Shown: positions 5,250-20,999, counted from the stretch's first letter. The stretch: DNA of 64,000 bases from an uncultured Candidatus Bathyarchaeia archaeon (GCA_964484995.1 CAZAHF010000001.1:672-64671); one strand, 5' to 3'. Made by a program: numbers and translations. Notes: generated by a model not told the origin, from the sequence alone.

Positions 5250-7067
5250 ATGGGGTTAAAGTTTAACATTTCCAAAGAAAAAAATATTCTTTTGGCAGTT
5301 TTTACTCTAAATTTTGTTTTAGCAGTTTTAGCGACAAAAGTTTTTTTTGAAAGCTACCCTTTAGGTATGGATTCTTTTTCGCATTTACCTAAGTTTCTCT
5401 ATTTTTCGAAGTACAGTTTTTCTCAATGGTTTTTTGATTGGTATTGTGGTTTTCCATATCTAATCTCTTATGCACCTTTAGCCTACATAATTGCTTATCT
5501 TCCAACCTTTATTGGTATTAATCCTATCCTATCTTACAAGCTTACTGAAATCTTCTTCTTAATATTAACTCCACTTGTTTTCTATAGACTGGCTAGAAGA
5601 CTTGGCTTAGAAAAAAATAGGTCGGCTTACGCAACCCTAATCTTCAGTATTATACCTTCAACAATCCAAAACTATCTAATTTTTGGTAGGTTTGCAAATA
5701 TTATTAGCTATCCTTTCTTTATTCTAACCCTAATCTTTATGTTTGATGTTTTAGAAAATTCCAAGAAAAAAAGTTTTATTTTAGCTTCCATATGTTTTAG
5801 TTTAACACTTTTAACACATCATTTTTCAGCTTATATTCTTCTTCTTGTAATGGTTATTTGTTTTCTCACTTTAGTCCAGGAAAAAGCAAGCCTAAATCAG
5901 GCTTTAGTAGGCATGGTTAAACTTGGGGGGATATCTCTTGTTGGATGTATTCTTTCAGGTTTTTGGCTTATACCCTACTACACCTATAAAGATTACTGGG
6001 TTTTAAGCGATTTTTCCCAGGAGACAGTTACGCTTCTAGCTTCACCAATCCTACTGGTTTTGATGGTTATCCTCATATGTTTAACTGTAAAAAAAGTTTT
6101 TAAACCAAAAAATTTTAGAAGTCTTTTTATTTTGGTTTGGATGATTGTTTTTCTTCTTTTAGGTTCAAGTCTTCTACCTTTAAAATATTTTTTACCTTTT
6201 GGTGGTGAAGTTGATTTCTTAAGGTTCCAACTTTATCTAGCTATACCTATAAGTCTTCTTTTAGTCAACCTTAAAGACTACTCTCTAGGTAAAATAGGAA
6301 AAAAACTTTTACTTCAACAAAAACTGGATAAACCAAAAATGTGGATCCTTATAATCGTAGTTTTAAATATTTTAATTATGGGAGTTATTCTCCAGGTTTT
6401 CCCCACAGTTCTAGCTGAAGAGGTTTGGCCTGAAGACCCCCCACCCAAACTTATTCAATATATCAAAGAGCAAAAAGATTGGGGTAGAATCCTACCCATA
6501 GACTGTCCATTTTGGGTTTATAACCTCCCATATCTAACAGAAAAACCTTTAGTTGACGGATGGTATCCTCAAGGATGTATTTTGCCAAAAATAAAATCTA
6601 GTACAAGAAAAACAATAAACCATTATTCAAATGAAACAATGTTAAAACACTTTATAGGTAACGCCGAAACCTACGGTATAAAATGGGTTTTAGTTGGAAA
6701 CCATTCAAAACTTTATCTACTCAAAAACAGCAATTTCCACAAAGTTTTAACTATTTCAAGGTTTACACTTTTTGAAAATACTTTAAATTTAACCTATATA
6801 GAGACAAACCCAAAAACAACAAAAATTGAGTACATCCAAAAAAGAGACTCCATAATTATAAGTTTAGAAACAAAAAGCTTTAAAACAACAGTTCTAGTTA
6901 AAGAAGCATATTTTCCAGGATGGGTTGTAACCGAAAACAATAAAGAGATATCCGTCTATCCAGATGAAAATGGATTTATCTGTTTTAATATTTATGGTGC
7001 TGGTAAGCATACGGTTATCTTAAAGTTTAATCCATACAGGGATATTCTTCAAAGATTTTTTGGATAA
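5250..7067 (+). CDS. Polytopic membrane protein, putative GT-C-fold glycosyltransferase / YfhO-like (605 aa)
   Basis: About 12 predicted TM helices in the first ~400 aa. An Asp-containing first loop (GMDSFSH) precedes a soluble C-terminal ~200-aa domain. No WWDYG (AglB) motif is present. Confidence 0.35.
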   Translation: MGLKFNISKEKNILLAVFTLNFVLAVLATKVFFESYPLGMDSFSHLPKFLYFSKYSFSQWFFDWYCGFPYLISYAPLAYIIAYLPTFIGINPILSYKLTEIFFLILTPLVFYRLARRLGLEKNRSAYATLIFSIIPSTIQNYLIFGRFANIISYPFFILTLIFMFDVLENSKKKSFILASICFSLTLLTHHFSAYILLLVMVICFLTLVQEKASLNQALVGMVKLGGISLVGCILSGFWLIPYYTYKDYWVLSDFSQETVTLLASPILLVLMVILICLTVKKVFKPKNFRSLFILVWMIVFLLLGSSLLPLKYFLPFGGEVDFLRFQLYLAIPISLLLVNLKDYSLGKIGKKLLLQQKLDKPKMWILIIVVLNILIMGVILQVFPTVLAEEVWPEDPPPKLIQYIKEQKDWGRILPIDCPFWVYNLPYLTEKPLVDGWYPQGCILPKIKSSTRKTINHYSNETMLKHFIGNAETYGIKWVLVGNHSKLYLLKNSNFHKVLTISRFTLFENTLNLTYIETNPKTTKIEYIQKRDSIIISLETKSFKTTVLVKEAYFPGWVVTENNKEISVYPDENGFICFNIYGAGKHTVILKFNPYRDILQRFFG

Positions 7068-9046
7068 TAAACAGTTTCCCCTGTCTCCTTTAAAATAAGA
7101 ATCCCCTCAACTCTCTCTTTTACTCTCTCCTTAAAATCTTTAGACCTTAAAATTTCAAGAAAACTTTGAATCTCAACCTTATTCATCCTATCAACCCTAA
7201 AAACAAAATCGTATAAGTCTTCAGTTAAAGGTATAAAGTCTAAACCATAACGTTTAGCAAAACCTTCAAACCCAAATCCAACATCTACTCTACCATCCAA
7301 AATTGCTGAAATACAACTTTGATAAGAGCCAACCTCAAAGTTGTATCCCTTAATCTTTGACGTTAAACTTTCAAAGTCCAATCCAGTTTTTTCAGCAAGC
7401 TTTCTAAACAAGAAATCTAAAAGTTCTCTTTGCTCTAAACCATGACTCCAGTTAACCATAATAACATCTTCTCTTAAGAAATCATCTAAACCACGAATAT
7501 TTTTCGGGTTTCCCTTCTTCACAAAAATCCCATGCCGCCTTTTATAGCCTCTAACAAGAACAGCCTCATTTTTAATTCCGTAAATTTCAAGAAAAGGCAG
7601 ATTATAGTCTCCTGTTTGCTTATCTAAAAGACTTATTCCAGCAAAATCCGCTCCACCTCTTCTTAAACTTGTTAAACCACCAGAAGAACCAACATTAAAA
7701 ATTTTAATTTTCCAGTTAGGATGTTTTAAAGCTAAAATTTCTAGGATAAAATCTAAACCTAAACAAGCTAAACCAGCAAAAACAAGATTTGAAGGTTTAA
7801 CTTCTTGACTAAAAAGTTTAACCTCAAAAACTTCCCCCTTCTCAACAATAGTCTTATTTTCAGGTATTTCAATAAACCCGTCAGCCTTTGCTAGAGTTGT
7901 AATTGCACCAGAACCTGTTGGTAGAGAAAAAGCTTCCAGCCCATCTTTTGTATGTAGAAGGTTTACAGGTAAAAAGTCTCTTCGCCCCTCGCTAGCAAAA
8001 ATTTTTTCGCCAACCTTTACCTTTAAAACTCTTCTTCTAATTGTAGGGTCTAATCCAGCCATCTCCATAAGAATTGGACGTACAAATAAGTCAAAAACCA
8101 TCAAGGCTGAGGTGGGATAACCAGGTAAACCAAAAATAGGTTTTTTATCTACAACAGCAAGCAAAGTTGGTTTTCCTGGTTTAATTAAGACTCCATGAAC
8201 AATTATTCCAGGTTTTCCAAGCTTCTCCACAACCCTATAAAGTATATCTCCAACCCCTGCTGATGTACCTCCTGAAACAATAACAGCATCACTAATCTCT
8301 AATCCTTCCTTAAGCTTCTGGTAAATAGAATTAAAATTATCTTCAGCAATCCCAAGAAAAATAGGTTCACATCCACATTCCCTAACCGAGCAGCAAATAG
8401 TATAACTATTTACATCATAAATTTTGCCAGACTCTAAGGGTTTTCCAGGTGAGACAAGTTCAGCGCCAGTTGAAAAAACAGCAATCTTAGGTTTTTTAAA
8501 GCAAGGAGGTTTAACAAAACCTATAGCTGCAAGTAACCCTATTTCTCTAGCTGTAAGAATTGTCCCTCTCCTTAAAAGAAGTTCTCCAGCTTTTATATCT
8601 GAACCTGCAACCATAACATTTTCATTTGGTGAGATAGGCTTGTAGACATAAACAAAATCTTTTTCACGTCTAGTATATTCAACCATTACTACAGCATCAG
8701 CACCCAAAGGTATAGGTGCACCAGTAGAAATTTCAACAGCCTCTCCATCATCAACTTTTATGCTTGGTTTTTCACCTGCAGCTATTCTTCCAACAACCCT
8801 AAGTTTAATAGGGTTTGTTTCTCCAGCTCCAAATGTGTTTTTTGCTTTTACAGCATAACCATCCATAGCAGCCCTATCAAAAAACGGAACATCAACTAAA
8901 CCAAAAACATCAGAACCTAAAACTCTACCACAAGCCTCAGTTAAGGGTACACTCTCAACACCTAAAGGTTTTGGTTTAAAAAAACTGTAAAACCTTTTTT
9001 TAGCTTCTTCAACAGACAAAAGTTTATGAAAAATTTCTCTTTCCAA
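7049..9046 (-). CDS. moeA: Molybdopterin molybdotransferase MoeA fused to a C-terminal PBP-like (oxyanion-binding-like) domain (665 aa)
   Basis: The N-terminal ~400 aa align to MoeA (FDRAAMDGYAV, GGTSAGVGD-like MoCF-biosynthesis motif). About 250 extra C-terminal aa resemble the PBP-like domain found fused to archaeal MoeA. Confidence 0.8.
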   Translation of the reverse strand: MEREIFHKLLSVEEAKKRFYSFFKPKPLGVESVPLTEACGRVLGSDVFGLVDVPFFDRAAMDGYAVKAKNTFGAGETNPIKLRVVGRIAAGEKPSIKVDDGEAVEISTGAPIPLGADAVVMVEYTRREKDFVYVYKPISPNENVMVAGSDIKAGELLLRRGTILTAREIGLLAAIGFVKPPCFKKPKIAVFSTGAELVSPGKPLESGKIYDVNSYTICCSVRECGCEPIFLGIAEDNFNSIYQKLKEGLEISDAVIVSGGTSAGVGDILYRVVEKLGKPGIIVHGVLIKPGKPTLLAVVDKKPIFGLPGYPTSALMVFDLFVRPILMEMAGLDPTIRRRVLKVKVGEKIFASEGRRDFLPVNLLHTKDGLEAFSLPTGSGAITTLAKADGFIEIPENKTIVEKGEVFEVKLFSQEVKPSNLVFAGLACLGLDFILEILALKHPNWKIKIFNVGSSGGLTSLRRGGADFAGISLLDKQTGDYNLPFLEIYGIKNEAVLVRGYKRRHGIFVKKGNPKNIRGLDDFLREDVIMVNWSHGLEQRELLDFLFRKLAEKTGLDFESLTSKIKGYNFEVGSYQSCISAILDGRVDVGFGFEGFAKRYGLDFIPLTEDLYDFVFRVDRMNKVEIQSFLEILRSKDFKERVKERVEGILILKETGETVYYPKNL

Positions 9047-9078
9047 AAACTTTTCACCGATATTTGGGTCTAATTTGT

Positions 9079-10347
9079 TTAAAACAAAATCACTTCTACT
9101 TCTTCTCCCTCTTTTAATCCTTCCCTGTTTTTAGGTATAACAATAAATCCGTCAGCTTTAACCATTGAGGAGATTACTCCAGCACCAGAAACTCTGATAG
9201 GCTCAGCATAAAGTTTCCTATCAACATTCTTCAAAGAAACTCTAACAAAATCCATTGTTCCAAGAGTTGAAGGAATATCCTTTGTAACTTTTGCTTTAAT
9301 AATACGTTCATACTTCTGATAGGGGATGTCTAACATTTCACAAAAGATTCTTTTAACAAAAACATGAAAAGCAACCATTGTTGAGACAGGGTAACCTGGA
9401 AGTAAAACAGCTGGTTTACCGTTAACCAAAGCTAAAGCTGTAGGTTTTCCAGGTCTAATTGAAACTCCATGAACAATTACTTTTGAGTTTTTTGTTTGGT
9501 TTACTGCTTGAGGCACAAAATCTTTTTCACCAACAGAAGTTCCACCACAAACAAGAATTAGGTCAGCTTTTTCCGAGGCTTCTAAAAGTTTAAGCTTAAT
9601 TAGCTCAACATCATCAGAAACAATACCTAAATCTACCGGTTCTCCGCCAATTTTTTTGATAGCTGAAAGAAGAAAATATCTATTTGAATCAAAAATTTTC
9701 CCTATAGAGGGAGTTTCACCATCTTTAGGTTCTACAAGTTCACTTCCAACAGAAAAAACTGCAACCTTAGGCTTACAAAAAACCCTAACCTTTTTTAATC
9801 CTAAAGCTGCAAGTAAACTTAAATCGTAGGGACTTAAAACAGTCCCTCTACTCAAAACTTTTTCTCCAACCTTAACATCTTCTCCAGCTTTTGAAACATT
9901 AGCACCAGCAGGAACAGAAGAATATACTATTAACTTATCTTCCCCAAGAACCTCTGTATATTCAACCATTACTACAGCATCAGCACCTTTAGGCAGAGGT
10001 GCACCAGTAAAAACTTTTACAGCTTCCATCTCTCCAACAGTAAGGTTTGAAGGTTTTCCAGCTTCAACATTACCAACTATTTTAAGGATAACCGGACTTG
10101 TTTTTGAAGCTCCAAATGTGTTTTTTGCTTTTACAGCATAACCATCCATAGCAGCCCTATCAAAAAACGGAATATTAGTAGTGCTAAAAACGTCAGAACC
10201 TAGAACTCTATCTAGGCTTTCAGTTAGATTAACCTCCTCAACATTCATCTTTCCTATACTTACGTTTTCAAGAAAACTTCTCCAAGCCTCTTCAACATTT
10301 AAAGTCTCAATAAAACCTCTTACCCTAACATCCTTCACAGAACCCAA
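9079..10347 (-). CDS. moeA: Molybdopterin molybdotransferase MoeA (422 aa), second tandem paralog
   Basis: Canonical MoeA length and motifs (FFDRAAMDGYAVKAKNTFGA, GGTSVGEKD). Confidence 0.85.
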   Translation of the reverse strand: MGSVKDVRVRGFIETLNVEEAWRSFLENVSIGKMNVEEVNLTESLDRVLGSDVFSTTNIPFFDRAAMDGYAVKAKNTFGASKTSPVILKIVGNVEAGKPSNLTVGEMEAVKVFTGAPLPKGADAVVMVEYTEVLGEDKLIVYSSVPAGANVSKAGEDVKVGEKVLSRGTVLSPYDLSLLAALGLKKVRVFCKPKVAVFSVGSELVEPKDGETPSIGKIFDSNRYFLLSAIKKIGGEPVDLGIVSDDVELIKLKLLEASEKADLILVCGGTSVGEKDFVPQAVNQTKNSKVIVHGVSIRPGKPTALALVNGKPAVLLPGYPVSTMVAFHVFVKRIFCEMLDIPYQKYERIIKAKVTKDIPSTLGTMDFVRVSLKNVDRKLYAEPIRVSGAGVISSMVKADGFIVIPKNREGLKEGEEVEVILF

Positions 10348-12339: not shown

Positions 12340-12735
12340 TTATTTAGGCTTTTTTAAAAGCAGTATTCTTGCCGCAAGTAAAGCAGCATTTTCACCATTA
12401 TCTATACCTACACACGCGACAGGAACACCTTTAGGCATCTGAACTATGGAAAGTAACGCATCTAAACCTCCAAGCCTTACATTAACAGGAACACCTATTA
12501 CTGGTTTATCTGTTCTTGAAGCAATAAATCCGGGTAGATGAGCGGAAAGACCAGCTATAGCAATAAAAACTTTTGCATCACATTTTTCCAGATACTCTTC
12601 AAGCTTCTTAGGATTTCGGTGTGCAGAAAGAACTTTAACCTCATAGGTTAAACCATATTCATCAAGAACTTTAACTGCTTTTTCAGCAATAGGCCTATCA
12701 GTTTCACTTCCAATTATAATGGCAACATCAACCAT
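12340..12735 (-). CDS. purE: PurE (N5-CAIR mutase / AIR carboxylase catalytic subunit)
   Basis: Flavodoxin-like PurE fold with the SAHR motif (VLSAHRNP) and glycine-rich loop. Position within the pur operon supports the call. Confidence 0.8.
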
Positions 12736-12759
12736 CTTTCACTATCCCGCCTCATCCAC

Positions 12760-14241
12760 CTAAGTCTCTAAAACTATTTTTCCTCTTTTAGGTATCCATT
12801 CAATAGTTTTACCAATAAGACCTTTTTTAGCTCTATAACGGTAGACAGCTCTAATCAAGTTTGCCTGCTCAATTCTTTTTTCTAGAAGCTGTTTTGAGCC
12901 TATATCGCTTCGGTGGAAAACTCCCCAACCATCCTCTAACCAAACATAGGGTATACAAGCCTCAACTTTTTCACCCGCCTCAGGTATAGTTTTACCCTTA
13001 CCAAAAATTTCAACAAGCCTAGAACCACCGGAAACAATTTTACCATCTGGCTTTAAGTCTGTTGAAGCAAAATAGACTTTACATCCTCTTCTCTCAATAG
13101 CCTTAACATCAACATGAATAGGATGACCCTTAGCCAAGTTTCTTTCTTCAGGATAGCCTTTTGGAGCAACACATTTAACAACTGTTGCAACATCTTCAAA
13201 CTCTAACTTAACCTTGTTTAGTCTTTCATCTATAATTGCTTCACAAACCTCTATAAGGTCTGTTTTAAGAATAGGAAGAACATTCACAGCTTCAGGGTCG
13301 CCAAGCCTACTATAAAACTCTATGATTGTTGGACCCCAAGCAGCTGTACACATCATCTGACCAGAAACAATACCCTTATATTTTTCACCAGTCTCCTTCT
13401 CAACAGCTCTAACACATCTTCTAACAATCTCAACAGATTTTTCAAATTCGTCTCTGGTTATAAATGGAAGAAACATACCTTTACCAGCTATAGAACCCAT
13501 ACCACCTGTTTCAGGTCCAATATCCATCTCAAAAGCATTCTTATTATCCTGAACCAAAGGTAAAGGTTTAACAGTTCTTCCATCAGTAAACGTTTGAAGT
13601 GTATATTCAGGGCCTTCAACCCTTTCCTCGATCAAAATTCTATCTTCTATGTCTGTATAGTCCTTCATATATTTCTCATGAATAGCTTTAGTATGTTCTT
13701 CTTTAACATGTGCTTTTTCTTGGCTTAGGTAAGCCTGAAGATCAGCTATAACTTTAACACCTTTCCCTCCAGCCTGTCTAGCTGGTTTTAAAGCTACACT
13801 TTCAGCATACTCGTGTATGTAGGCTACAGCATCCTCAACATTTTTGAATGCCTTAAATCTAAGTCTTCCAGGAATCCTATACTTCCACATAAGTCTCCTC
13901 ATAAAAGCCTTAGACATCTCAAGTTCAGCTGAACTACGTTTAGCACCAATACATGGTATCCCCTCTTTTTCTAACTCATCAGAAACACCACGAAACAGAG
14001 GTTCCTCAGGACCAACAAAAACAAAGTCTACCCTATACTTTTTTGCAGTTTCAACAACAGTTTTGGGGTCTTGAGAATTTCCAAGAGTAACCTCTCCACC
14101 AGTAACCTTACATAAGGAGGCTATACCAGGATTGTTTAACCTCATAACAGCATAAAGTTTAGGGTCTAATCTGCTTCTACATAAAGCCTCAGCTATTGCA
14201 TGTTCACGTGCGGCTTCACCAACCAACAAAACCTTAACCAC
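12760..14241 (-). CDS. purD: Phosphoribosylamine-glycine ligase (GAR synthetase)
   Basis: Typical PurD N-terminus (KVLLVGEAAREHAIAEAL) and an ATP-grasp region. It sits in the pur operon. Confidence 0.85.
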   Translation of the reverse strand: MVKVLLVGEAAREHAIAEALCRSRLDPKLYAVMRLNNPGIASLCKVTGGEVTLGNSQDPKTVVETAKKYRVDFVFVGPEEPLFRGVSDELEKEGIPCIGAKRSSAELEMSKAFMRRLMWKYRIPGRLRFKAFKNVEDAVAYIHEYAESVALKPARQAGGKGVKVIADLQAYLSQEKAHVKEEHTKAIHEKYMKDYTDIEDRILIEERVEGPEYTLQTFTDGRTVKPLPLVQDNKNAFEMDIGPETGGMGSIAGKGMFLPFITRDEFEKSVEIVRRCVRAVEKETGEKYKGIVSGQMMCTAAWGPTIIEFYSRLGDPEAVNVLPILKTDLIEVCEAIIDERLNKVKLEFEDVATVVKCVAPKGYPEERNLAKGHPIHVDVKAIERRGCKVYFASTDLKPDGKIVSGGSRLVEIFGKGKTIPEAGEKVEACIPYVWLEDGWGVFHRSDIGSKQLLEKRIEQANLIRAVYRYRAKKGLIGKTIEWIPKRGKIVLET

Positions 14242-14259
14242 ATCTTCTTCCTCCCAAAC

Positions 14260-15597
14260 CTAACTAATAGGATACTTGCCTGTAAAACATCCTAAACAAA
14301 GATTTTTTCTAGGTATACCTATTGCCTCAACAAGGCCTTTTAGACTTAGCCAGTAAAAGGTGTCAGCTCCAACAACCTTACTTACCTCTTCAGCATTAAG
14401 ATGAACAGCTATAAGCTCATCTTTTGGCGGAACATCTGTTCCAAACGGACATTGAGCTATAAGTCTTGGACTACCAATCCTTACATGAACCTCTTTTGCC
14501 CCCATCTTGTTTCGCATAAGGTTAACAGTATTCTTGGTTGTTGTCCCTCTAACAACACTATCATCTATTAACACAACCCTTTTTCCAGCTATAGCTGCTC
14601 TTATAGGGTTTAGCTTTAGCTGAACACCAACTATCCGCTCAAACTCTGTTGGTTTAATAGCGCTTCTAATTCTTCTACCAGTCTGAACAAAACCTATCCC
14701 CATAGGTGTTTTTGTCTTGTTTGAGTAGGCTACAGCAAAAGGTATGGCTGTCTCAGGAACACCTAAAACAACTTCACTTCGGTTTACTTTATGCTCCTCA
14801 GCAAGTTTTTCACCAATCTTCATTCTAACCTCATAAATACTCTTACCATTAATTATTGAGTCGGGTCTTGCATAGTAAACATATTCAAAAGCACAGAATC
14901 TTGGGTTTGGCTTTAACACTTGCTTTCTCTCAATACTGTATGCATCAAAAAAATAGATTTCACCAGGCTGAACATCATTTTTAAAGTCTGCACCTATAAC
15001 ATCCATAACACAACTTTCAGACGCAACAACCCCATAATCAAAACCAAAACTTCCAATAGTTAAAGGTTTAACACCATAACTGTCTCTAGCTACAACCATC
15101 TCTCCACTCCCTGTTAAAGCAATAAGCGAATAAGCACCTTTCACTTTACCCATAAGACTAACAATAGCCTCCACAGCTTTCCCTGTTCTTTCTAACTCTA
15201 AAGAAAAAAGTTTGGCTAAAAATTCAGCATCATCTTCACAGTTTATACCTTCTTTTTCAGCTAACTCTCTAAAATTCAATATTTTTCCATCATAACATAA
15301 AGCCACAGGTTTCGGCTCCCAAACAACTATAGGTTGAATTTTTGAGGGATCTTTCTGAGGTATTGAGGTTACACTTCCAATACCAATCCAACCTTGAAGA
15401 TTTTCTATTGTTTCAGGCTCTGAAAACACCTGGTCCACAAGTCCAACATTTTTATGGTAGCTTAAACTTTCACCATTAAAAGTTACAATTCCACAGTTTT
15501 CCTGTCCACGATGTTGAAGAGCTAAAAGTGAATAATAAATAAAACGAGCCATTCTCCATTCTTTACTAAACCCATATATTCCAACTATTCCACCCAA
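14260..15597 (-). CDS. Amidophosphoribosyltransferase paralog with degenerate glutaminase site (445 aa)
   Basis: Full PurF architecture: PRPP loop VVLIDDSVVRGTT and Fe-S cysteines CPFG...CLGCFTG. The N-terminus reads (TTG)-GGIVGIYG, so Gly replaces the Ntn Cys, and the oxyanion NG is replaced by DG. An in-frame stop lies 6 codons upstream of the start, so no upstream Cys is possible. Confidence 0.75.
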   Translation of the reverse strand: MGGIVGIYGFSKEWRMARFIYYSLLALQHRGQENCGIVTFNGESLSYHKNVGLVDQVFSEPETIENLQGWIGIGSVTSIPQKDPSKIQPIVVWEPKPVALCYDGKILNFRELAEKEGINCEDDAEFLAKLFSLELERTGKAVEAIVSLMGKVKGAYSLIALTGSGEMVVARDSYGVKPLTIGSFGFDYGVVASESCVMDVIGADFKNDVQPGEIYFFDAYSIERKQVLKPNPRFCAFEYVYYARPDSIINGKSIYEVRMKIGEKLAEEHKVNRSEVVLGVPETAIPFAVAYSNKTKTPMGIGFVQTGRRIRSAIKPTEFERIVGVQLKLNPIRAAIAGKRVVLIDDSVVRGTTTKNTVNLMRNKMGAKEVHVRIGSPRLIAQCPFGTDVPPKDELIAVHLNAEEVSKVVGADTFYWLSLKGLVEAIGIPRKNLCLGCFTGKYPIS

Positions 15598-15615
15598 ATT
15601 TTTCCACCTTCTAAC

Positions 15616-17055
15616 CTAAAAATTAAATTCAACATATCTACCTTCAACATATTGAGCTTTACCTTTCATTGTATCAGCTAGCTTTTGGGCTTTTGGTGTA
15701 GGATACTCGCCAGTTAAACATGCTAAACAAAGGTTTTCCCTACTAATTCCTATCGCATCAACAAGGTTTTCTATTGTCTGATATCCTAGGGAGTCTGCAC
15801 CTATAATTTTGCATATTTCTTCAACAGACCTTTTCGAGGCTATAAGCTCTCTATGAGTTGCTATGTCTATCCCATAAAAGCATGGGGAAATTATTGGTGG
15901 ACATGTTATTCTTACATGAACCTCTTTTGCCCCTGCTCTTCTAATCATTTGAATTATGTTTCTAATGGTTGTTCCTCTAACAATACTATCATCAATAAGT
16001 ATAATTTTTTTGTCTTTAAGCACAGACCTAAGAGGATTTAGCTTAACTCTAACAGCATTCTCTCTTAAATCTTGTTTTGGCATAATAAAGGTTCTATGAA
16101 TATACCTATTCTTTATTAAACCTTCTGCTACCGGGAGACCTGTATACCTAGCCATTCCTTCTGCAGCAGGTCTTGATGTATCCGGAACAGGAACAATAAC
16201 ATCCGCATCATCTCCACCATAAGTTTTTGCAAGATTTATACCAAGCCTTAACCTAACATCATAAACACTTCTCTCTTCAATCACAGAGTCTGGACGGCTA
16301 AAATAAACAAACTCAAACATGCAATAAGCTCTTTTACCTGTTCTCATAAAACACTTTCTTTCAACACCAGAATCAGAAATTAGGATAGCTTCACCAGGTT
16401 TAACATCAGAAACAAGTTTTCCACCAAGCATATCAACAGCAACACTTTCAGAAGCACCTATAAAGGCCGAGTCTGTTTCACCAAAACATAAAGGTTTAAA
16501 CCCTAACGGGTCTCTAAAAATAAGGATTTTTTCATCACCAGTAAGACAGACAGCAGAGTAAGCTCCCTCAACAGATTTTGAAAGCTCTGAAAGAGCATCA
16601 AAAAAATCACCTGTTTCTCTAAACTCACGTAACAAAATATTTAATAAAAGTTCAGCATCAGAAGTTGAGGTAAAATAGACTCCACTTTTTCTAAGTTTTT
16701 CTTTAAGCTCTACATAGTTTACTATGGTTCCATTATAGGCTAAAGCTGTACTGTCAAGGTTAAAGGGTTGAGCATCTGTTAGGCTTGATTTTCCAACAGT
16801 TGAATATCTTACATGACCTATTCCAAACCTACTTTTAAGCATTGATAACTCTGTCAAGGATAATGCTTCAGCAACAAGCCCCATTTCCTTTCTTAGATAA
16901 AGGCCTCCATTACCAGTTGTTAAAGCAATTCCAGCAGATTCTTGTCCACGATGCTGAAGAGCCATAAGCCCATAAAAGATATTTTCTGCAACATTTCCCT
17001 CTTTATCATGAATACCTATTACTCCACAAGCTTCTTTTAGACTCATGGTTTTCAA
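15616..17055 (-). CDS. purF: Amidophosphoribosyltransferase (canonical, with 9-aa propeptide before Cys)
   Basis: MKTMSLKEA-CGVIGI propeptide plus Cys1 resembles B. subtilis PurF. HVRYST, LAYNGTIVN, PRPP loop IILIDDSIVRGTT and Fe-S ligands CFYGID / CLACLTGEYP are present. Confidence 0.85.
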   Translation of the reverse strand: MKTMSLKEACGVIGIHDKEGNVAENIFYGLMALQHRGQESAGIALTTGNGGLYLRKEMGLVAEALSLTELSMLKSRFGIGHVRYSTVGKSSLTDAQPFNLDSTALAYNGTIVNYVELKEKLRKSGVYFTSTSDAELLLNILLREFRETGDFFDALSELSKSVEGAYSAVCLTGDEKILIFRDPLGFKPLCFGETDSAFIGASESVAVDMLGGKLVSDVKPGEAILISDSGVERKCFMRTGKRAYCMFEFVYFSRPDSVIEERSVYDVRLRLGINLAKTYGGDDADVIVPVPDTSRPAAEGMARYTGLPVAEGLIKNRYIHRTFIMPKQDLRENAVRVKLNPLRSVLKDKKIILIDDSIVRGTTIRNIIQMIRRAGAKEVHVRITCPPIISPCFYGIDIATHRELIASKRSVEEICKIIGADSLGYQTIENLVDAIGISRENLCLACLTGEYPTPKAQKLADTMKGKAQYVEGRYVEFNF

Positions 17056-17056
17056 C

Positions 17057-19297
17057 CTACACTCCCTCCATAGCTTTTGGTATTGCTTCCTTCCATGTTT
17101 TCTCCATTAAACTAACAGAACACTCAACAACCTCATTCAAACCCCTCATAAGAATAAACCTATCATCATCAACAACCTCCCCTATAACATTTGCTGGAGC
17201 ACCCCATTTACTAGCAATTTTTAATATCTCTTCCGCCGACTCTTTACCCGATGTTGTTAAAACAACCCTTGAATAAGACTCTGAAAACAGTAGTTCATCA
17301 AGCCTTATCAGCCTAGCTGATGGAACATTTGAAAGGTCTACCCTAACACCCATCTTCCCCTTTATAGCCATTAAAGCTAAGGCTACAGCAAGCCCACCTT
17401 TTGAACAGTCATGAGCCGCGGTTACAAGCCCATTTCTAATAGCCTCCATAACAGTTTGAACTGTTGCTTTTTCTCTTTTTCCATCAGCTTTTGGAGGTTT
17501 TCCACCAGTTAAATTATGAATTTCATGGTAGTATTCCGATCCTCCAAGCTCTGGATAAGTTTTTCCAACTAAAACTATGAGGTCTCCATGATTCTTAAAG
17601 GCCATAGTAGTTATCCAATCTAAGTTTTCAATTAAACCTAACATTACAACTACAATGCTTGGCTTAACCGCAACCTTTGTTTTTTCATCTTCATTATAAA
17701 AGCTAACATTTCCGCCTACACATGGTATCCCTAAAGCTTTACTCATGTAAGCTAAACCCTCAACTCCACGTTTAAACTGCCAAAAAACTTCAGGGTTTTC
17801 TGGATTACCAAAATTACAGCAGTCCGTATAGGCTAAAGGTTCTGCCCCAACACAAACAACATTTCTTGCAGCTTCAGCAAGAGCACCAGCAGACCCATTA
17901 AACGGATCCAAATAGCTATGACGACTATTACAGTCAGCTTTTGCTGCAATAGCCCTATCTGTTTCAAGAATTCTAAGAACAGCAGCATCAGAGTTTCCTG
18001 GTTTTAAAATTGTTCTAACACCAACCTCATGGTCATACTGTTGGTAGACCCACTCTTTACATGCAATATTTGGTGCTTCTAGAAGCCTGTAAAGAGTTTC
18101 TGAAAGGTCTTCTGGCTCCTTAGGTTTCTTAACATTTAAAAGCCTTTTAAGGTAGGATGGTTTTTTAGCTTTTCTTCTAACTATTGGTGCTTCAGCCAAA
18201 TATTTTGGTGGAATTGAAGCAACAACTTCTCCCTTAAATTTTGCAACAAGCAAACCTGTATCTGTAACCTTTCCAATAATCGAGTAAGAAATTTCATATT
18301 TTTCCAGAATTCTTTTAACTTCATCAACTCCCTTAGGATCAACAGCAAGCAGCATTCTTTCTTGAGACTCTGAAAGTAGAAGCTCATAAGGATTCATACC
18401 TTCTTCACGAACATGTATCTTCTCTAACTCAATTTCAACACCAGTCCCGCCTTTAGCAGCCATTTCCGAAGTTGCACATGTTAGACCTCCACCACCGAGA
18501 TCTTTTACTCCATGCACATAACCAGTCCCTAAAATTTCAAGTACAGCCTCAATAAGAAGCTTTTTTGTAAAGGGATCTCCAATCTGAACTGAAGGTCTAT
18601 CTTCCTCAGACTTTTCACCTATAGTTTTTGATGCGAAGGTTACACCATGAATTCCATCTCTTCCTGTTGCACCACCAATAAGAACAAGTAAATCTCCTGG
18701 ATGTTCAAACTTAGCTAAGAATATTTTATCTTTTTTTGCTACACCGTAACATGCAACATTAACCAAACAGTTTGTCTCAAAACTTTCATCAAACTCTACC
18801 TCACCAGCAACCGTTGGAATACCTATACAGTTTCCGTAATCACCTATTCCTTTAACAACATAACGGAAAAGCCATTTTGTACGTCCAGTGTTTAATTTAC
18901 CAAACCTTAAAGGGTCTATGAGCAAAATAGGCCTTGCACCTGTAGCAAGAATATCTCTAACAATTCCACCTATACCTGTTGCAGCCCCATTATATGGTTC
19001 AATAGCTGAAGGATGATTATGGCTTTCAACTTTAAACGCTACTACATAACCATCTCCAACATCAACAATACCTGAGTCATAACCAGGACCAACAACAACT
19101 CTGGGTGAGGTTGTAGGTAGCTTCTTAAGAACTGGCCGGCTACTCTTATAAGAACAGTGCTCAGACCACATAATATCAAACATTCCCCATTCAGCAGGAG
19201 TAGGCTCTCTACCTAAAAGCCTCCTAATAGTTTTAATCTCTCTGTTTGAGAGGTTTACCTTAACAGGGATAGTTTTAGACTTAACCATAATCACCAT
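17057..19297 (-). CDS. purL: FGAM synthase II, large subunit PurL
   Basis: 746-aa PurM-like tandem domain protein with typical archaeal/Gram-positive PurL length and motifs. It sits in the operon between purQ and purF. Confidence 0.9.
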   Translation of the reverse strand: MVIMVKSKTIPVKVNLSNREIKTIRRLLGREPTPAEWGMFDIMWSEHCSYKSSRPVLKKLPTTSPRVVVGPGYDSGIVDVGDGYVVAFKVESHNHPSAIEPYNGAATGIGGIVRDILATGARPILLIDPLRFGKLNTGRTKWLFRYVVKGIGDYGNCIGIPTVAGEVEFDESFETNCLVNVACYGVAKKDKIFLAKFEHPGDLLVLIGGATGRDGIHGVTFASKTIGEKSEEDRPSVQIGDPFTKKLLIEAVLEILGTGYVHGVKDLGGGGLTCATSEMAAKGGTGVEIELEKIHVREEGMNPYELLLSESQERMLLAVDPKGVDEVKRILEKYEISYSIIGKVTDTGLLVAKFKGEVVASIPPKYLAEAPIVRRKAKKPSYLKRLLNVKKPKEPEDLSETLYRLLEAPNIACKEWVYQQYDHEVGVRTILKPGNSDAAVLRILETDRAIAAKADCNSRHSYLDPFNGSAGALAEAARNVVCVGAEPLAYTDCCNFGNPENPEVFWQFKRGVEGLAYMSKALGIPCVGGNVSFYNEDEKTKVAVKPSIVVVMLGLIENLDWITTMAFKNHGDLIVLVGKTYPELGGSEYYHEIHNLTGGKPPKADGKREKATVQTVMEAIRNGLVTAAHDCSKGGLAVALALMAIKGKMGVRVDLSNVPSARLIRLDELLFSESYSRVVLTTSGKESAEEILKIASKWGAPANVIGEVVDDDRFILMRGLNEVVECSVSLMEKTWKEAIPKAMEGV

Positions 19298-19300
19298 CCA

Positions 19301-20002
19301 TTAACACTTCAAAAACCTAATCATAGACTCAAAAAGTAGCAGTCCATCGTTATCTTTGTAAGGACTCAAAATTTTTTCTGAGGCTCTTTCAGGATGAGGC
19401 ATAAGTCCAACAACATTTCCTTTAGGATTACAAACAGAAGCTATATTTTCCACAGAACCATTTGGATTTGCTTTGGAGGTTATTTTTCCATTCTCATCAA
19501 CATACCTAAAAACTATCTGCTGTCCTTTCTTCATCCTCTTTAATTCCTCTTTAGTGTTAAAGTATCTTCCTTCCTTATGGGCTATGGGTATGTGAAGAAG
19601 CTTTCCTTCCGGAATTAAAGAAGTAAAAGCTGTTTTATTTGTTTCACATTTTAAAGTTACCCATTTACAAACAAACCTTAAACAGTCATTTGGCAAGAGT
19701 GCTCCTGGAAGAAGCCCTGCCTCAATAAGAATTTGAAAACCGTTACATATACCAAGTATAGGTCTACCATCCTCAGCCATTTTTCTTACTTCATCCATAG
19801 CTGGACTGTGAGAAGCAATTGCACCGCTTCGTAAATAATCTCCATAAGAAAAACCACCAGGAAGTATAACAGCATCATAAAAATTGTTCTTGAAAAACTT
19901 ATGCCAAACAAGATCCGTAGGAACACCTAAAACATTCTTTAACACGTAAACAACATCATAATCACAGTTCGAACCTGGAAACTGGATAACTGCAATTCTC
20001 AT
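19301..20002 (-). CDS. purQ: FGAM synthase I, glutaminase subunit PurQ
   Basis: Class I GATase (MRIAVIQFPGSNCDYD; catalytic Cys in GICNGFQ; HPER motif). Confidence 0.9.
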   Translation of the reverse strand: MRIAVIQFPGSNCDYDVVYVLKNVLGVPTDLVWHKFFKNNFYDAVILPGGFSYGDYLRSGAIASHSPAMDEVRKMAEDGRPILGICNGFQILIEAGLLPGALLPNDCLRFVCKWVTLKCETNKTAFTSLIPEGKLLHIPIAHKEGRYFNTKEELKRMKKGQQIVFRYVDENGKITSKANPNGSVENIASVCNPKGNVVGLMPHPERASEKILSPYKDNDGLLLFESMIRFLKC

Positions 20003-20271
20003 TCTTTAAAACCTCTAACACGAATTTTATGGGTATGAACAACCGGGTTGTAAATTCTTAAAGCATTACACATATCAAAAACAATTTTCTCAGCCTGCTT
20101 CTTATCATTAGCATCAACTAAAACCTTAAGATATTTTCCAGTCCGAACAGACTTTACACTTTCATAACCACCTTTAAGAATCAAATCTTTATAGATTGTT
20201 TCACCTTCAGGGTCTCTTGCAGCAGGCTTATTTTCTATAATAACCTCAACAGTATAGGTTTTTGTCTTCAT
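19999..20271 (-). CDS. purS: FGAM synthase PurS subunit
   Basis: 90-aa PurS-like ferredoxin-fold protein. It overlaps purQ (ATGA) and purC. Confidence 0.85.
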   Translation of the reverse strand: MKTKTYTVEVIIENKPAARDPEGETIYKDLILKGGYESVKSVRTGKYLKVLVDANDKKQAEKIVFDMCNALRIYNPVVHTHKIRVRGFKE

Positions 20272-20999
20272 TTTGGCTCCTTTCCCACAATTAATTTGTA
20301 GGTTTGAACATAGGTTTGGAGAACCTTATCTAAATCTGCCCCTTCCCTATAGACATCCTTATCCATAGATTTACCTGTTTTTAAATCCCAAAGCCTCATA
20401 CAATCAATATTTAACTCATCACCAACCCTAAGTTTCCCATTTTTATCTCTGCCAAACTCAAGCTTAAAGTCAACAAGCTGTAAACCAAGCTTCTGCATAA
20501 AACTACTTAAAACCTTATTAACTTTCAAAGTGATCTTTTTTATCTCGTTTATTTCCTTTTTACTCATCAAACCAAAAACTTTTAGATGTTCTTCAGAGAG
20601 AAGCGGGTCATGGAATAAATCGTTTTTAAGATAAAACTCGATAAGAGGAGTTTTAAGTTTTTCACCCTTCTTAAAGAACGGGTAATTCTTAACAAGATGG
20701 CCTGCAGCAATATTTCTACATACAACCTCAACAGGAATCATATTAAGTTTTTTAACTCTCATTGTTGAAGAGTTAACCATTCCAATAAAATGGGTAGGGA
20801 TACCTCTTCTCCTAAGTAGACTAAAAATTTTTGCCGAAACACCAGCATTAATTACACCTTTCCCAGGAAGAATATCGTGTTTTTTACCATCTAAAGCTGT
20901 AACATCATCTTTAAACTTTAACAGAACCTCATCTTCTACAGATGAAGCATAAACTATCTTTGTTTTACCTTCAGCAAGCTTTCTAAGCAATGTTTTCAT
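20268..20999 (-). CDS. purC: SAICAR synthetase
   Basis: PurC motifs (GKTKIVY, KFKDDVTALDGKK). First gene of the minus-strand pur operon. Confidence 0.9.
   Translation of the reverse strand: MKTLLRKLAEGKTKIVYASSVEDEVLLKFKDDVTALDGKKHDILPGKGVINAGVSAKIFSLLRRRGIPTHFIGMVNSSTMRVKKLNMIPVEVVCRNIAAGHLVKNYPFFKKGEKLKTPLIEFYLKNDLFHDPLLSEEHLKVFGLMSKKEINEIKKITLKVNKVLSSFMQKLGLQLVDFKLEFGRDKNGKLRVGDELNIDCMRLWDLKTGKSMDKDVYREGADLDKVLQTYVQTYKLIVGKEPK

Follow-up and report, generated by a model that had tools for sequence, protein, structure and literature searches.

A glutaminase-dead paralog of PurF, PurF', encoded between purF and purD in an uncultured Bathyarchaeia archaeon

Introduction

The window analysed here, a stretch of 64,000 nucleotides from an uncultured Candidatus Bathyarchaeia archaeon (GCA_964484995.1, CAZAHF010000001.1:672-64671), carries two adjacent PurF-like genes within a purine (pur) operon, both on the minus strand: one of 479 amino acids (aa; 15616-17055) and one of 445 aa (14260-15597). 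The 479-aa protein is a canonical glutamine phosphoribosyl pyrophosphate (PRPP) amidotransferase. The glutaminase site of the 445-aa protein is dead: the Cys nucleophile and the oxyanion Asn are replaced, as are the Arg that contacts the carboxylate of glutamine and the coupling Tyr. The protein keeps every PRPP-binding residue and the Fe-S ligands. It is almost certain that the 445-aa gene is a member of the PurF' family and is functional. The explanation that best accounts for the data as a whole, to which we give about an even chance, is that the gene is a PurF' ortholog whose product would aminate PRPP independently of glutamine, alongside PurF.

PurF catalyses the first reaction of purine synthesis, a committed step under feedback control, and its product, phosphoribosylamine, is unstable and is consumed by PurD. 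Brown, Hoopes, White and Sarisky (2011, Biol Direct 6:63, PMC3261824) found two PurF-like genes in every purine-synthesising crenarchaeon, one from each of two clusters: the members of one cluster have an N-terminal Cys and those of the other, named PurF', have Ala, Val or Ser instead. In these genomes purF' lies not far from purF and from further pur genes, in the order purF-purF'-purD in Sulfolobales (SSO0632/0633/0635, Saci_1611/1612/1613, Msed_1981-1983 and ST1496-1498), and PurF' was absent from both marine ammonia oxidisers surveyed. These authors put forward the hypothesis that PurF' is an ammonia-dependent PRPP aminotransferase. The paralog considered here is thus not new, since the family, its position between purF and purD and the ammonia proposal were all published in 2011; a preliminary description of the window, made from the sequence alone, had missed this work.

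Results

The 479-aa protein is a canonical PurF and the 445-aa protein has a dead glutaminase site

The two genes were compared with B. subtilis and E. coli PurF by alignment. For B. subtilis numbering, the mature protein was rebuilt from the 1AO0 alignment and the numbering checked on landmarks; E. coli numbering was taken from the 6CZF alignment. The 479-aa protein begins MKTMSLKEACGVIGI, and its N-terminus reads MKTMSLKEA-CGVIGI, i.e. a short propeptide followed by Cys. It matches TIGR01134 end to end with 483.4 bits (cut-off 350). The glutaminase residues are Cys10 (equivalent to the nucleophile Cys1), H81-V-R83-Y84, N108-G109 and D133, and the protein possesses the KNRYIHRTFIMP loop (flexible loop K-N-R-Y-I-H-R-T-F-I-M-P), the PRPP loop DDSIVRGTT and the four Fe-S Cys. 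With every canonical residue present, it is a canonical Fe-S, propeptide-type PurF. It should be noted that in this lineage canonical PurF extends about 27 residues past the last Fe-S Cys (15616-15700 in the window; also seen at the 3' ends of purF in the related loci L001, L003 and L004), and that this tail terminates in a conserved R-Y-[VI]-E-[FL] motif (GRYVEFNF, GRYVEFCF, NRYIEL.., ARYIEF..).

The 445-aa protein, 38% identical to its neighbour, begins M-GGIVGIYGFSKEW and reads M-G-G-I-V-G-I-Y. Its match to TIGR01134 is full length, with 338.9 bits, below the curated NCBIfam cut-off of 350. In the alignment, Gly2 (codon 15592-15594) stands at the position of Cys1, S75-V-T77-S78 replaces H-V-R-Y and D103-G104 replaces the oxyanion Asn-Gly; the codons of T77, in place of the glutamine-binding Arg, and of D103 lie at 15367-15369 and 15289-15291. 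Among the glutamine-pocket residues Arg73, Tyr74, Asn101-Gly102 and Asp127 (E. coli numbering), the last alone is retained, as D123. By its N-terminus, its glutamine pocket and its TIGR01134 score the protein is not a glutamine-dependent PurF. These positions lie in the N-terminal domain (14907-15597), which has the N-terminal nucleophile (Ntn) fold and was assessed by residue mapping, predicted confidence and selection analysis.

By contrast with the glutaminase site, the phosphoribosyltransferase (PRTase) and Fe-S parts are retained. The four [4Fe-4S] ligands of the B. subtilis class are kept as C235 (14893-14895), C383 (14449-14451), C434 (14296-14298) and C437 (14287-14289), whose codons span 14287-14895. 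The PRPP loop VVLIDDSVVRGTT (14539-14577, with D345 and D346) includes DDSVVRGTT; this motif, the pyrophosphate (PPi) loop P-E-T-A and R311 of the flexible loop are invariant in the clade. The flexible loop (14608-14685) is rebuilt but conserved, reading Q-T-G-R-R-I-R-S-A-I-K-P where canonical PurF has K-N-R-Y-x-x-R-T-F-I-M-P.

These results bear out most of the preliminary description, which had recognised the two adjacent PurF-like genes and the canonical nature of the 479-aa copy, and had stated that the 445-aa copy keeps its PRTase domain and Fe-S ligands, has Gly in place of Cys1 and Asp-Gly in place of Asn-Gly, and cannot be a glutamine-dependent Ntn amidotransferase. Its claim that the HVRY motif is lost is correct as to the His, Arg and Tyr; the replacement that it gave, IGSV, is not what the alignment shows, which is SVTS.

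The TTG codon is the only possible start of purF'

The absence of Cys1 depends on where translation of purF' begins. The TAG stop codon of purF (15616-15618) is in frame with purF' and lies seven codons 5' of the TTG start (15595-15597). The 18-nucleotide (nt) junction (15598-15615), which contains an AGGTGG ribosome-binding site (15604-15609), consists of the six codons GTT AGA AGG TGG AAA AAT, none of which is a start codon or a Cys codon. Since the residues G3...W14 after the TTG are invariant across the family and no start codon lies upstream, this N-terminal stretch is translated and the TTG is the sole possible start. A hidden Cys provided by an earlier start was therefore ruled out by the upstream stop, by the six intervening codons, none of which encodes a start or a Cys, and by the N-termini of the orthologs; the preliminary description had likewise cited the in-frame stop against any alternative Cys.

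The TTG start is shared by the window, five Hecatellales/Bathyarchaeia loci (L001, at 5974; L002-L005, at 6001) and one from Nezhaarchaeota (L033, at 6001); in other lineages, purF' opens with ATG or GTG, in overlap with the stop codon of purF. The conserved weak TTG may reflect translational coupling or deliberately lower expression. Across 14 related loci, the distance from the purF stop to the purF' start ranges from -13 to +18 nt, the two genes share the same frame in 4 of 14, and the purF stop codon is TAA, TAG or TGA. Production of a PurF-PurF' fusion by read-through of the in-frame TAG, 18 nt from purF', was ruled out on these grounds, the shared frame in the window being due to chance. 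No natural PurF-PurF' fusion was found in a clade profile search against 1.84 billion representatives. The representatives also include six long proteins, P0209 (849 aa), P0228 (859 aa), P0173 (727 aa), P0168 (699 aa), P0266 (694 aa) and P0162 (670 aa), which consist of one canonical PurF module and 200-400 extra residues; each has a single matched stretch and hence is not such a fusion.

The gene belongs to a widespread archaeal family adjoining purF and purD

A homology search with the window PurF' retrieved 120 close homologues, which come from Hecatellales/Bathyarchaeia (89% identity; probably the lineage of the window itself), Nezhaarchaeota, Thermoprotei, Hadesarchaea, metagenome-assembled genomes (MAGs) of 'Thaumarchaeota'/Nitrososphaeria, and Freyarchaeota. 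More than 100 of these homologues, from independent assemblies, begin M-[A/S/P/G/T/V]-G-[I/V/L]-x-G. A contig scan with the window PurF' as single query gave only close relatives and ordinary bacterial PurFs. A neighbour-joining (NJ) tree built from 149 sequences over 428 columns unites the second copies without exception, those of Thermoproteales included, in a single clade with a bootstrap of 100/100, the sister group of which is made up of the archaeal canonical partner PurFs.

When the clade profile was run against the 1.84 billion representatives, a Sulfurisphaera ohwakuensis protein (WP_390530961.1), proteins from Sulfolobales MAGs and one from Aigarchaeota ranked level with canonical PurFs or higher; each has the PurF' clade signature described below. 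Because the Sulfurisphaera and Sulfolobales proteins outrank all canonical PurFs in the profile search and carry this signature, the window gene is a member of the PurF' family of Brown et al. (ST1497, SSO0633, Saci_1612). The family thus reaches beyond the Crenarchaeota surveyed in 2011, the window gene being its Bathyarchaeia/Hecatellales member.

Gene neighbourhoods were examined in the flanking sequence of the retrieved loci rather than in whole genomes. A Cys-bearing canonical PurF is encoded beside PurF' at every locus with enough flank: at 14 loci purF lies directly upstream in the same orientation (L001-L006, L009, L028, L030, L031 and L033-L036) and at two, from Thermoproteales/Thermoproteota MAGs, the genes are divergent (L013 and L017). 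In all examined tandem loci but L035 the next gene after purF' is purD; in L035, purD is found about 4.4 kb downstream. This purF-purF'-purD module was seen in Bathyarchaeia/Hecatellales, Nezhaarchaeota, Hadesarchaea, Aigarchaeota/'Thaumarchaeota' MAGs and Freyarchaeota. Taken together, these results identify PurF' as an ancient duplicate of PurF that always adjoins or lies close to a genuine PurF gene, usually between purF and purD.

The glutamine pocket is lost across the clade and the PRTase site is conserved

Position conservation was compared between 122 PurF' and 135 canonical PurF sequences, and key sites were tabulated in 120 PurF' members, 109 of them Cys-less and 11 with the Cys kept. 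Arg72 (E. coli Arg73) and Tyr73 are absent from all 120 members, and His70, Thr75 and Asp127 are variable; in the E. coli enzyme, the glutamine analogue 6-diazo-5-oxo-L-norleucine has its carboxylate held by Arg73 (PMC7953260). Position 1 was scorable in 107 Cys-less proteins and is Ala (36), Ser (32), Pro (16), Gly (9), Thr (7) or Val (7), residues which in all 107 cases permit removal of the initiator Met. The possibility that Ser or Thr serves as a substitute N-terminal nucleophile was ruled out, as Ala, Pro, Gly or Val occupies this position in 68 of the 107. At position 102 the Cys-less proteins have Asp (72), Ser (25) or Asn (9); replacement of Asn102 goes with loss of the Cys, since Asn is found in 11 of 11 Cys-keepers and Asp or Ser in 97 of 109 Cys-less members.

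The 11 Cys-keepers (P0015, P0016, P0024, P0025, P0032, P0036-38, P0042, P0043 and P0050) come from Freyarchaeota (L028, 8001-9344) and some Bathyarchaeia (L030, 8001-9350) and form two nested groups in the tree. They have Cys1 after a short propeptide, Asn102 and Asp127, but lack Arg72 and Tyr73, and represent either intermediates of site decay or amidases for a non-glutamine substrate. The NJ topology, with its limited rooting, suggests that the disabling of the glutamine site dates back to the origin of the clade and that several independent losses of Cys1 followed.

Regarding the PRTase domain, the four Fe-S Cys are kept in 120 of 120 members, and D345, D346, S347, R350, G351 and T353 are invariant in the same set. 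T306, G307, R311, A313 and P316 are found in all 109 Cys-less members and all 11 Cys-keepers. Fifty-two positions are conserved identically in PurF' and in the 135 canonical PurFs, including DDSxVRGxT, the PPi loop, R311 (E. coli R332), I314 (I335), L395 (L415), Y241/R244/D246 and the Fe-S Cys. PurF' has gained constraint at another 22 positions, the majority of them in the flexible loop and the rest of the PRTase domain; examples are the newly invariant E320, G324, Q326 and L327, together with P384, P390 and D393, on the PRTase side and Trp14 (a clade-specific invariant), Phe19 and Tyr22 in the N-terminal domain. Phe313 (E. coli Phe334) is Ala in every PurF' member, and small residues stand in place of Tyr73. 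The flexible-loop motif of the family is x-T-G-R-x-V-R-S/T-A-I-K-P, and the clade signature consists of an insertion with Trp14 after strand 1, T306-G307...R311-S/T-A313-I-K/R-P316 and the lack of Arg72 and Tyr73. The window protein carries this signature, with W14, QTGRRIRSAIKP and T77/S78 in place of Arg72/Tyr73.

purF' is under purifying selection and its product is predicted to fold as PurF

The ratio of nonsynonymous to synonymous substitution rates (dN/dS) was calculated pairwise by NG86 against five orthologs, synonymous divergence (dS) being near saturation in the more distant pairs. For purF' the ratio was 0.06-0.12 over the whole gene, 0.07-0.18 in the N-terminal domain and 0.05-0.09 in the C-terminal domain; for the neighbouring purF it was 0.11-0.18 over the whole gene. 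The closest ortholog pair (dS 0.65-0.89) gave the same picture. The gene is therefore under strong purifying selection in both domains. A pseudogene or decaying duplicate was ruled out by the intact frame, the dN/dS values and the conserved residues. Conservation of the Cys-less form, a check that the preliminary description had proposed, holds in many archaeal lineages together with purifying selection, so that the gene is a functional paralog rather than a copy in decay.

An AlphaFold2 model of the window PurF', built from a 71-sequence alignment, had a predicted local distance difference test (pLDDT) score of 90.3 and a predicted template modelling (TM) score of 0.89. In the N-terminal domain, pLDDT means over 10-residue blocks were 85-98; confidence was low at the flexible loop only, as expected of a mobile loop. 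The best Foldseek match was 1ao0_A (TM 0.87), and B. subtilis, Arabidopsis and E. coli PurF were matched over their full length (TM 0.87-0.88). The window PurF' is thus predicted to fold as a complete two-domain PurF.

Layout of the purine operon

The open reading frames and their translations define a minus-strand purine operon at 12340-20999, with the order purC-purS-purQ-purL-purF-purF'-purD-purE. The purC gene (20268-20999), which has a Pfam match, is followed by purS (19999-20271), purQ (19301-20002) and purL (17057-19297), all three called from their reading frames and translations; these four genes were also called in related loci. Downstream of purF and purF', each identified above, lie purD (12760-14241), which encodes glycinamide ribonucleotide synthetase (Pfam GARS_N, GARS_A and GARS_C), and purE (12340-12735), of the aminoimidazole ribonucleotide carboxylase family (Pfam AIRC, 1e-51), the last gene of the cluster. 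The purF' gene is separated by 18 nt from purF upstream and by 18 nt from purD downstream.

Scans of the full 64-kb window for tRNAs and Rfam families detected neither a tRNA gene nor any family at the gathering threshold. Two MoeA (molybdopterin molybdenumtransferase) paralogs are encoded in tandem on the minus strand at 7049-10347; the upstream-lying one (7049-9046, 665 aa) has a C-terminal fusion to a PBP-like or solute-binding-like domain.

Discussion

A model for glutamine-independent synthesis of phosphoribosylamine

The preliminary description had offered three functions, use of free ammonia, a regulatory or structural partnership with PurF and a different PRPP-dependent function, and all three stay under consideration here. 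The best overall explanation, amination of PRPP by PurF' without glutamine, can be worded as a mechanism. PurF' would bind PRPP, close its rebuilt flexible loop over it and make phosphoribosylamine from free ammonia or ammonium in solution. Removal of the initiator Met by methionine aminopeptidase, which the small residue at the next position would allow, would leave a free N-terminal amine. Together with the removal of the Arg and the change of Asn to Asp, this amine might have shifted the former glutamine pocket from an anion-binding to a cation-friendly site. The channel would be left open, with Ile314 and Leu395 kept and with Tyr changed to small residues and Phe to Ala. PurF' would probably act alongside PurF, possibly in mixed oligomers, and feed PurD.

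Ammonia-dependent catalysis as such seems to us a plausible proposal that falls just short of an even chance. According to Mei and Zalkin (1989), as cited in PMC3261824, replacement of Cys1 in E. coli PurF abolishes the use of glutamine and leaves the ammonia activity in place, and closure of the PurF flexible loop over PRPP is what forms the ammonia channel (PMC7056826). Furthermore, PurF variants of Bacillota show the same pair of changes, Cys to Ser or Gly and Asn to Asp, with an independent origin; this recurrence suggests that the combination is selected, with a contribution of mutational bias. A more specific form of the model is that of a dedicated ammonium-dependent phosphoribosylamine synthase, in which the old pocket would serve for ammonium capture and deprotonation, a widened channel would lead to PRPP, PurF, PurF' and PurD would assemble, and Bacillota would have reached the same solution independently. 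We regard this form as rather unlikely.

Several points weigh against glutamine-independent catalysis by PurF'. We found no biochemical, structural or genetic study of PurF' in the literature after 2011, which was searched by name, locus tag and concept. The cation-friendly pocket is an idea based on sequence only, and the change of Asn to Asp requires a single base, so that part of the convergence with Bacillota may reflect mutational bias. Canonical PurF is already able to use ammonia, and the benefit of a dedicated second enzyme is not evident. The strict co-occurrence with PurF fits a dependent partner equally well as an isozyme. Tyr74 and the loop residues K305 and R307 (B. subtilis numbering; in E. 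coli, K326 and R328) take part in PRPP contact, in signalling and in the allosteric nucleotide site; since their equivalents are changed in PurF', catalysis could be impaired. Finally, in divergent members from Sulfolobales and Thermoproteales the PRPP loop reads DDSMVTGRT or DDSLLKGIT, whereas the window subclade keeps the canonical DDSVVRGTT.

Alternative explanations

PurF' could instead be a non-catalytic subunit that forms mixed dimers or tetramers with PurF and that, through the rebuilt flexible loop and an intact PRPP/nucleotide pocket, alters the stability or feedback regulation of PurF or passes the labile phosphoribosylamine to PurD. Duplicated homomers often persist as heteromers. 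PurF enzymes are homotetramers (PMC7056826), and every purine-making crenarchaeon has one gene of each cluster (PMC3261824). In our own data the partner gene was present at each of the 16 loci with enough flank, and the short junctions suggest co-translation; the adjoining PurF is fully canonical, so that the chemistry can proceed without PurF'. Moreover, the loop changes affect exactly the equivalents of K305 and R307, which form part of the inter-subunit allosteric nucleotide site of B. subtilis PurF, and the G307 that results is invariant. A purely structural role, however, would not predict the invariance of D345, D346, S347, R350, G351, T353, R311, P316 and the PPi loop, nor 22 new constraints placed mostly around the PRTase site, although a subunit that senses a ligand could retain PRPP-site residues. 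The lack of any PurF-PurF' fusion among the 1.84 billion representatives also speaks against a partner subunit, as do the divergent or far-apart genes of some Thermoproteales and of Ignicoccus. We consider a role as partner subunit the chief rival explanation, though an unlikely one; it should be noted that such a role and ammonia-dependent catalysis are not mutually exclusive.

A change of reaction is less probable still, and we give it little credence. PurF' would then carry out a different PRPP-dependent reaction, with a nucleophile larger than ammonia or with a non-glutamine nitrogen donor, by means of a widened pocket and channel. The flexible loop rebuilt to a new invariant motif, the Ala in place of Phe313 in all members and the small residues in place of Tyr73 are compatible with this, and the 11 Cys-keepers, with Cys1, Asn102 and Asp127 but no glutamine-binding Arg, could mean that another amide is hydrolysed. 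On the other hand, the purF-purF'-purD position is conserved in six or more lineages, which argues for the same step, and pocket positions 1, 70, 73 and 127 vary widely, as under relaxed constraint rather than in a specific binding site newly acquired. Nor are these archaea known to us to lack a PRPP-dependent step that such an enzyme would supply. As to decay of the second copy, or a Cys missed through a wrong start call or a sequencing error, the score just under the TIGR01134 cut-off and the weak TTG start are all that could be cited in favour; with an intact frame, a dN/dS of 0.06-0.12 against five orthologs, the same N-terminus in more than 100 homologues, a TTG conserved in the window and L001-L005 and no start or Cys codon upstream, this explanation can be set aside with near certainty.

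Comparison with known systems

The crenarchaeal PurF' proteins (SSO0633, Saci_1612, ST1497, Msed_1982 and PAE0218) resemble the window protein in being full-length, Cys-less, encoded beside purF and purD and placed in a separate cluster, and the window protein shares its clade with those of Sulfolobales and Thermoproteales. It differs in having Gly at position 1 and in being closest to MAGs of Candidatus Hecatellales (Bathyarchaeia), a lineage outside the 2011 survey. With B. subtilis-type PurF (1AO0, 1GPH), it shares the two-domain fold (TM 0.87), the four [4Fe-4S] Cys, the PRPP and PPi loops, R311, Ile314 and Leu395, but it lacks Cys1, His70, Arg72, Tyr73 and Asn102, and its loop is x-T-G-R...S-A instead of K-N-R-Y...T-F. 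Compared to B. subtilis and E. coli PurF, PurF' has a 3-residue insertion with the invariant Trp after strand 1. The E. coli Cys1 mutants of Mei and Zalkin, as reported in the later literature, are an experimental precedent for the use of ammonia after loss of Cys1; those were laboratory point mutants, otherwise canonical, whereas in PurF' the glutamine-binding Arg and the coupling Tyr are missing as well and the loop is rebuilt.

Other Cys-less PurFs are distinct from PurF'. Mlab_0150 of Methanocorpusculum (with Ser; PMC3261824) and the Bacillota variants likewise lack the Cys, position 1 being Ser or Gly, and in most of them Asp replaces Asn102, but they are of independent and more recent origin, with the canonical KNRYxGRTFI loop, often Arg/Lys72-Tyr73, and no Trp14 insertion, and they are not among the sequences that bear the PurF' signature. 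The separate Cys-less set met in our searches comprises P0132, P0153, P0155, P0196, P0197, P0215, P0223, P0232, P0238 (Oribacterium sinus WP_455025572.1) and P0256; its named clusters are all from Bacillota (Tissierellia, Lachnospiraceae), and the set shows the position-1 and oxyanion replacements just given.

Paralogs that have lost their original active site and serve as partners or have been re-purposed are known elsewhere, as HisZ with HisG, or beta-lactam synthetase relative to AsnB. Viral pseudo-glutamine amidotransferases recruit cellular phosphoribosylformylglycinamidine synthase (PMC7605207). These systems may be likened to PurF' in that selection keeps a dead-site paralog in its original pathway; they belong to other protein families, and the likeness is one of analogy.

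Significance

A specialist in archaeal purine metabolism would not be surprised to find PurF' in the window. What is added here to the described family is its wider distribution, the order of active-site decay and a residue-level hypothesis. Much of the archaeal domain, including TACK lineages, Hadesarchaea and some Asgard archaea, has kept a glutaminase-dead copy beside PurF since before the divergence of these lineages. If PurF' converts ammonium to phosphoribosylamine, the entry of nitrogen into purines would bypass glutamine in these organisms, and metabolic reconstructions of Bathyarchaeia, Nezhaarchaeota and others would be affected; if it is a regulatory pseudo-subunit, it would represent a new mode of pathway control.

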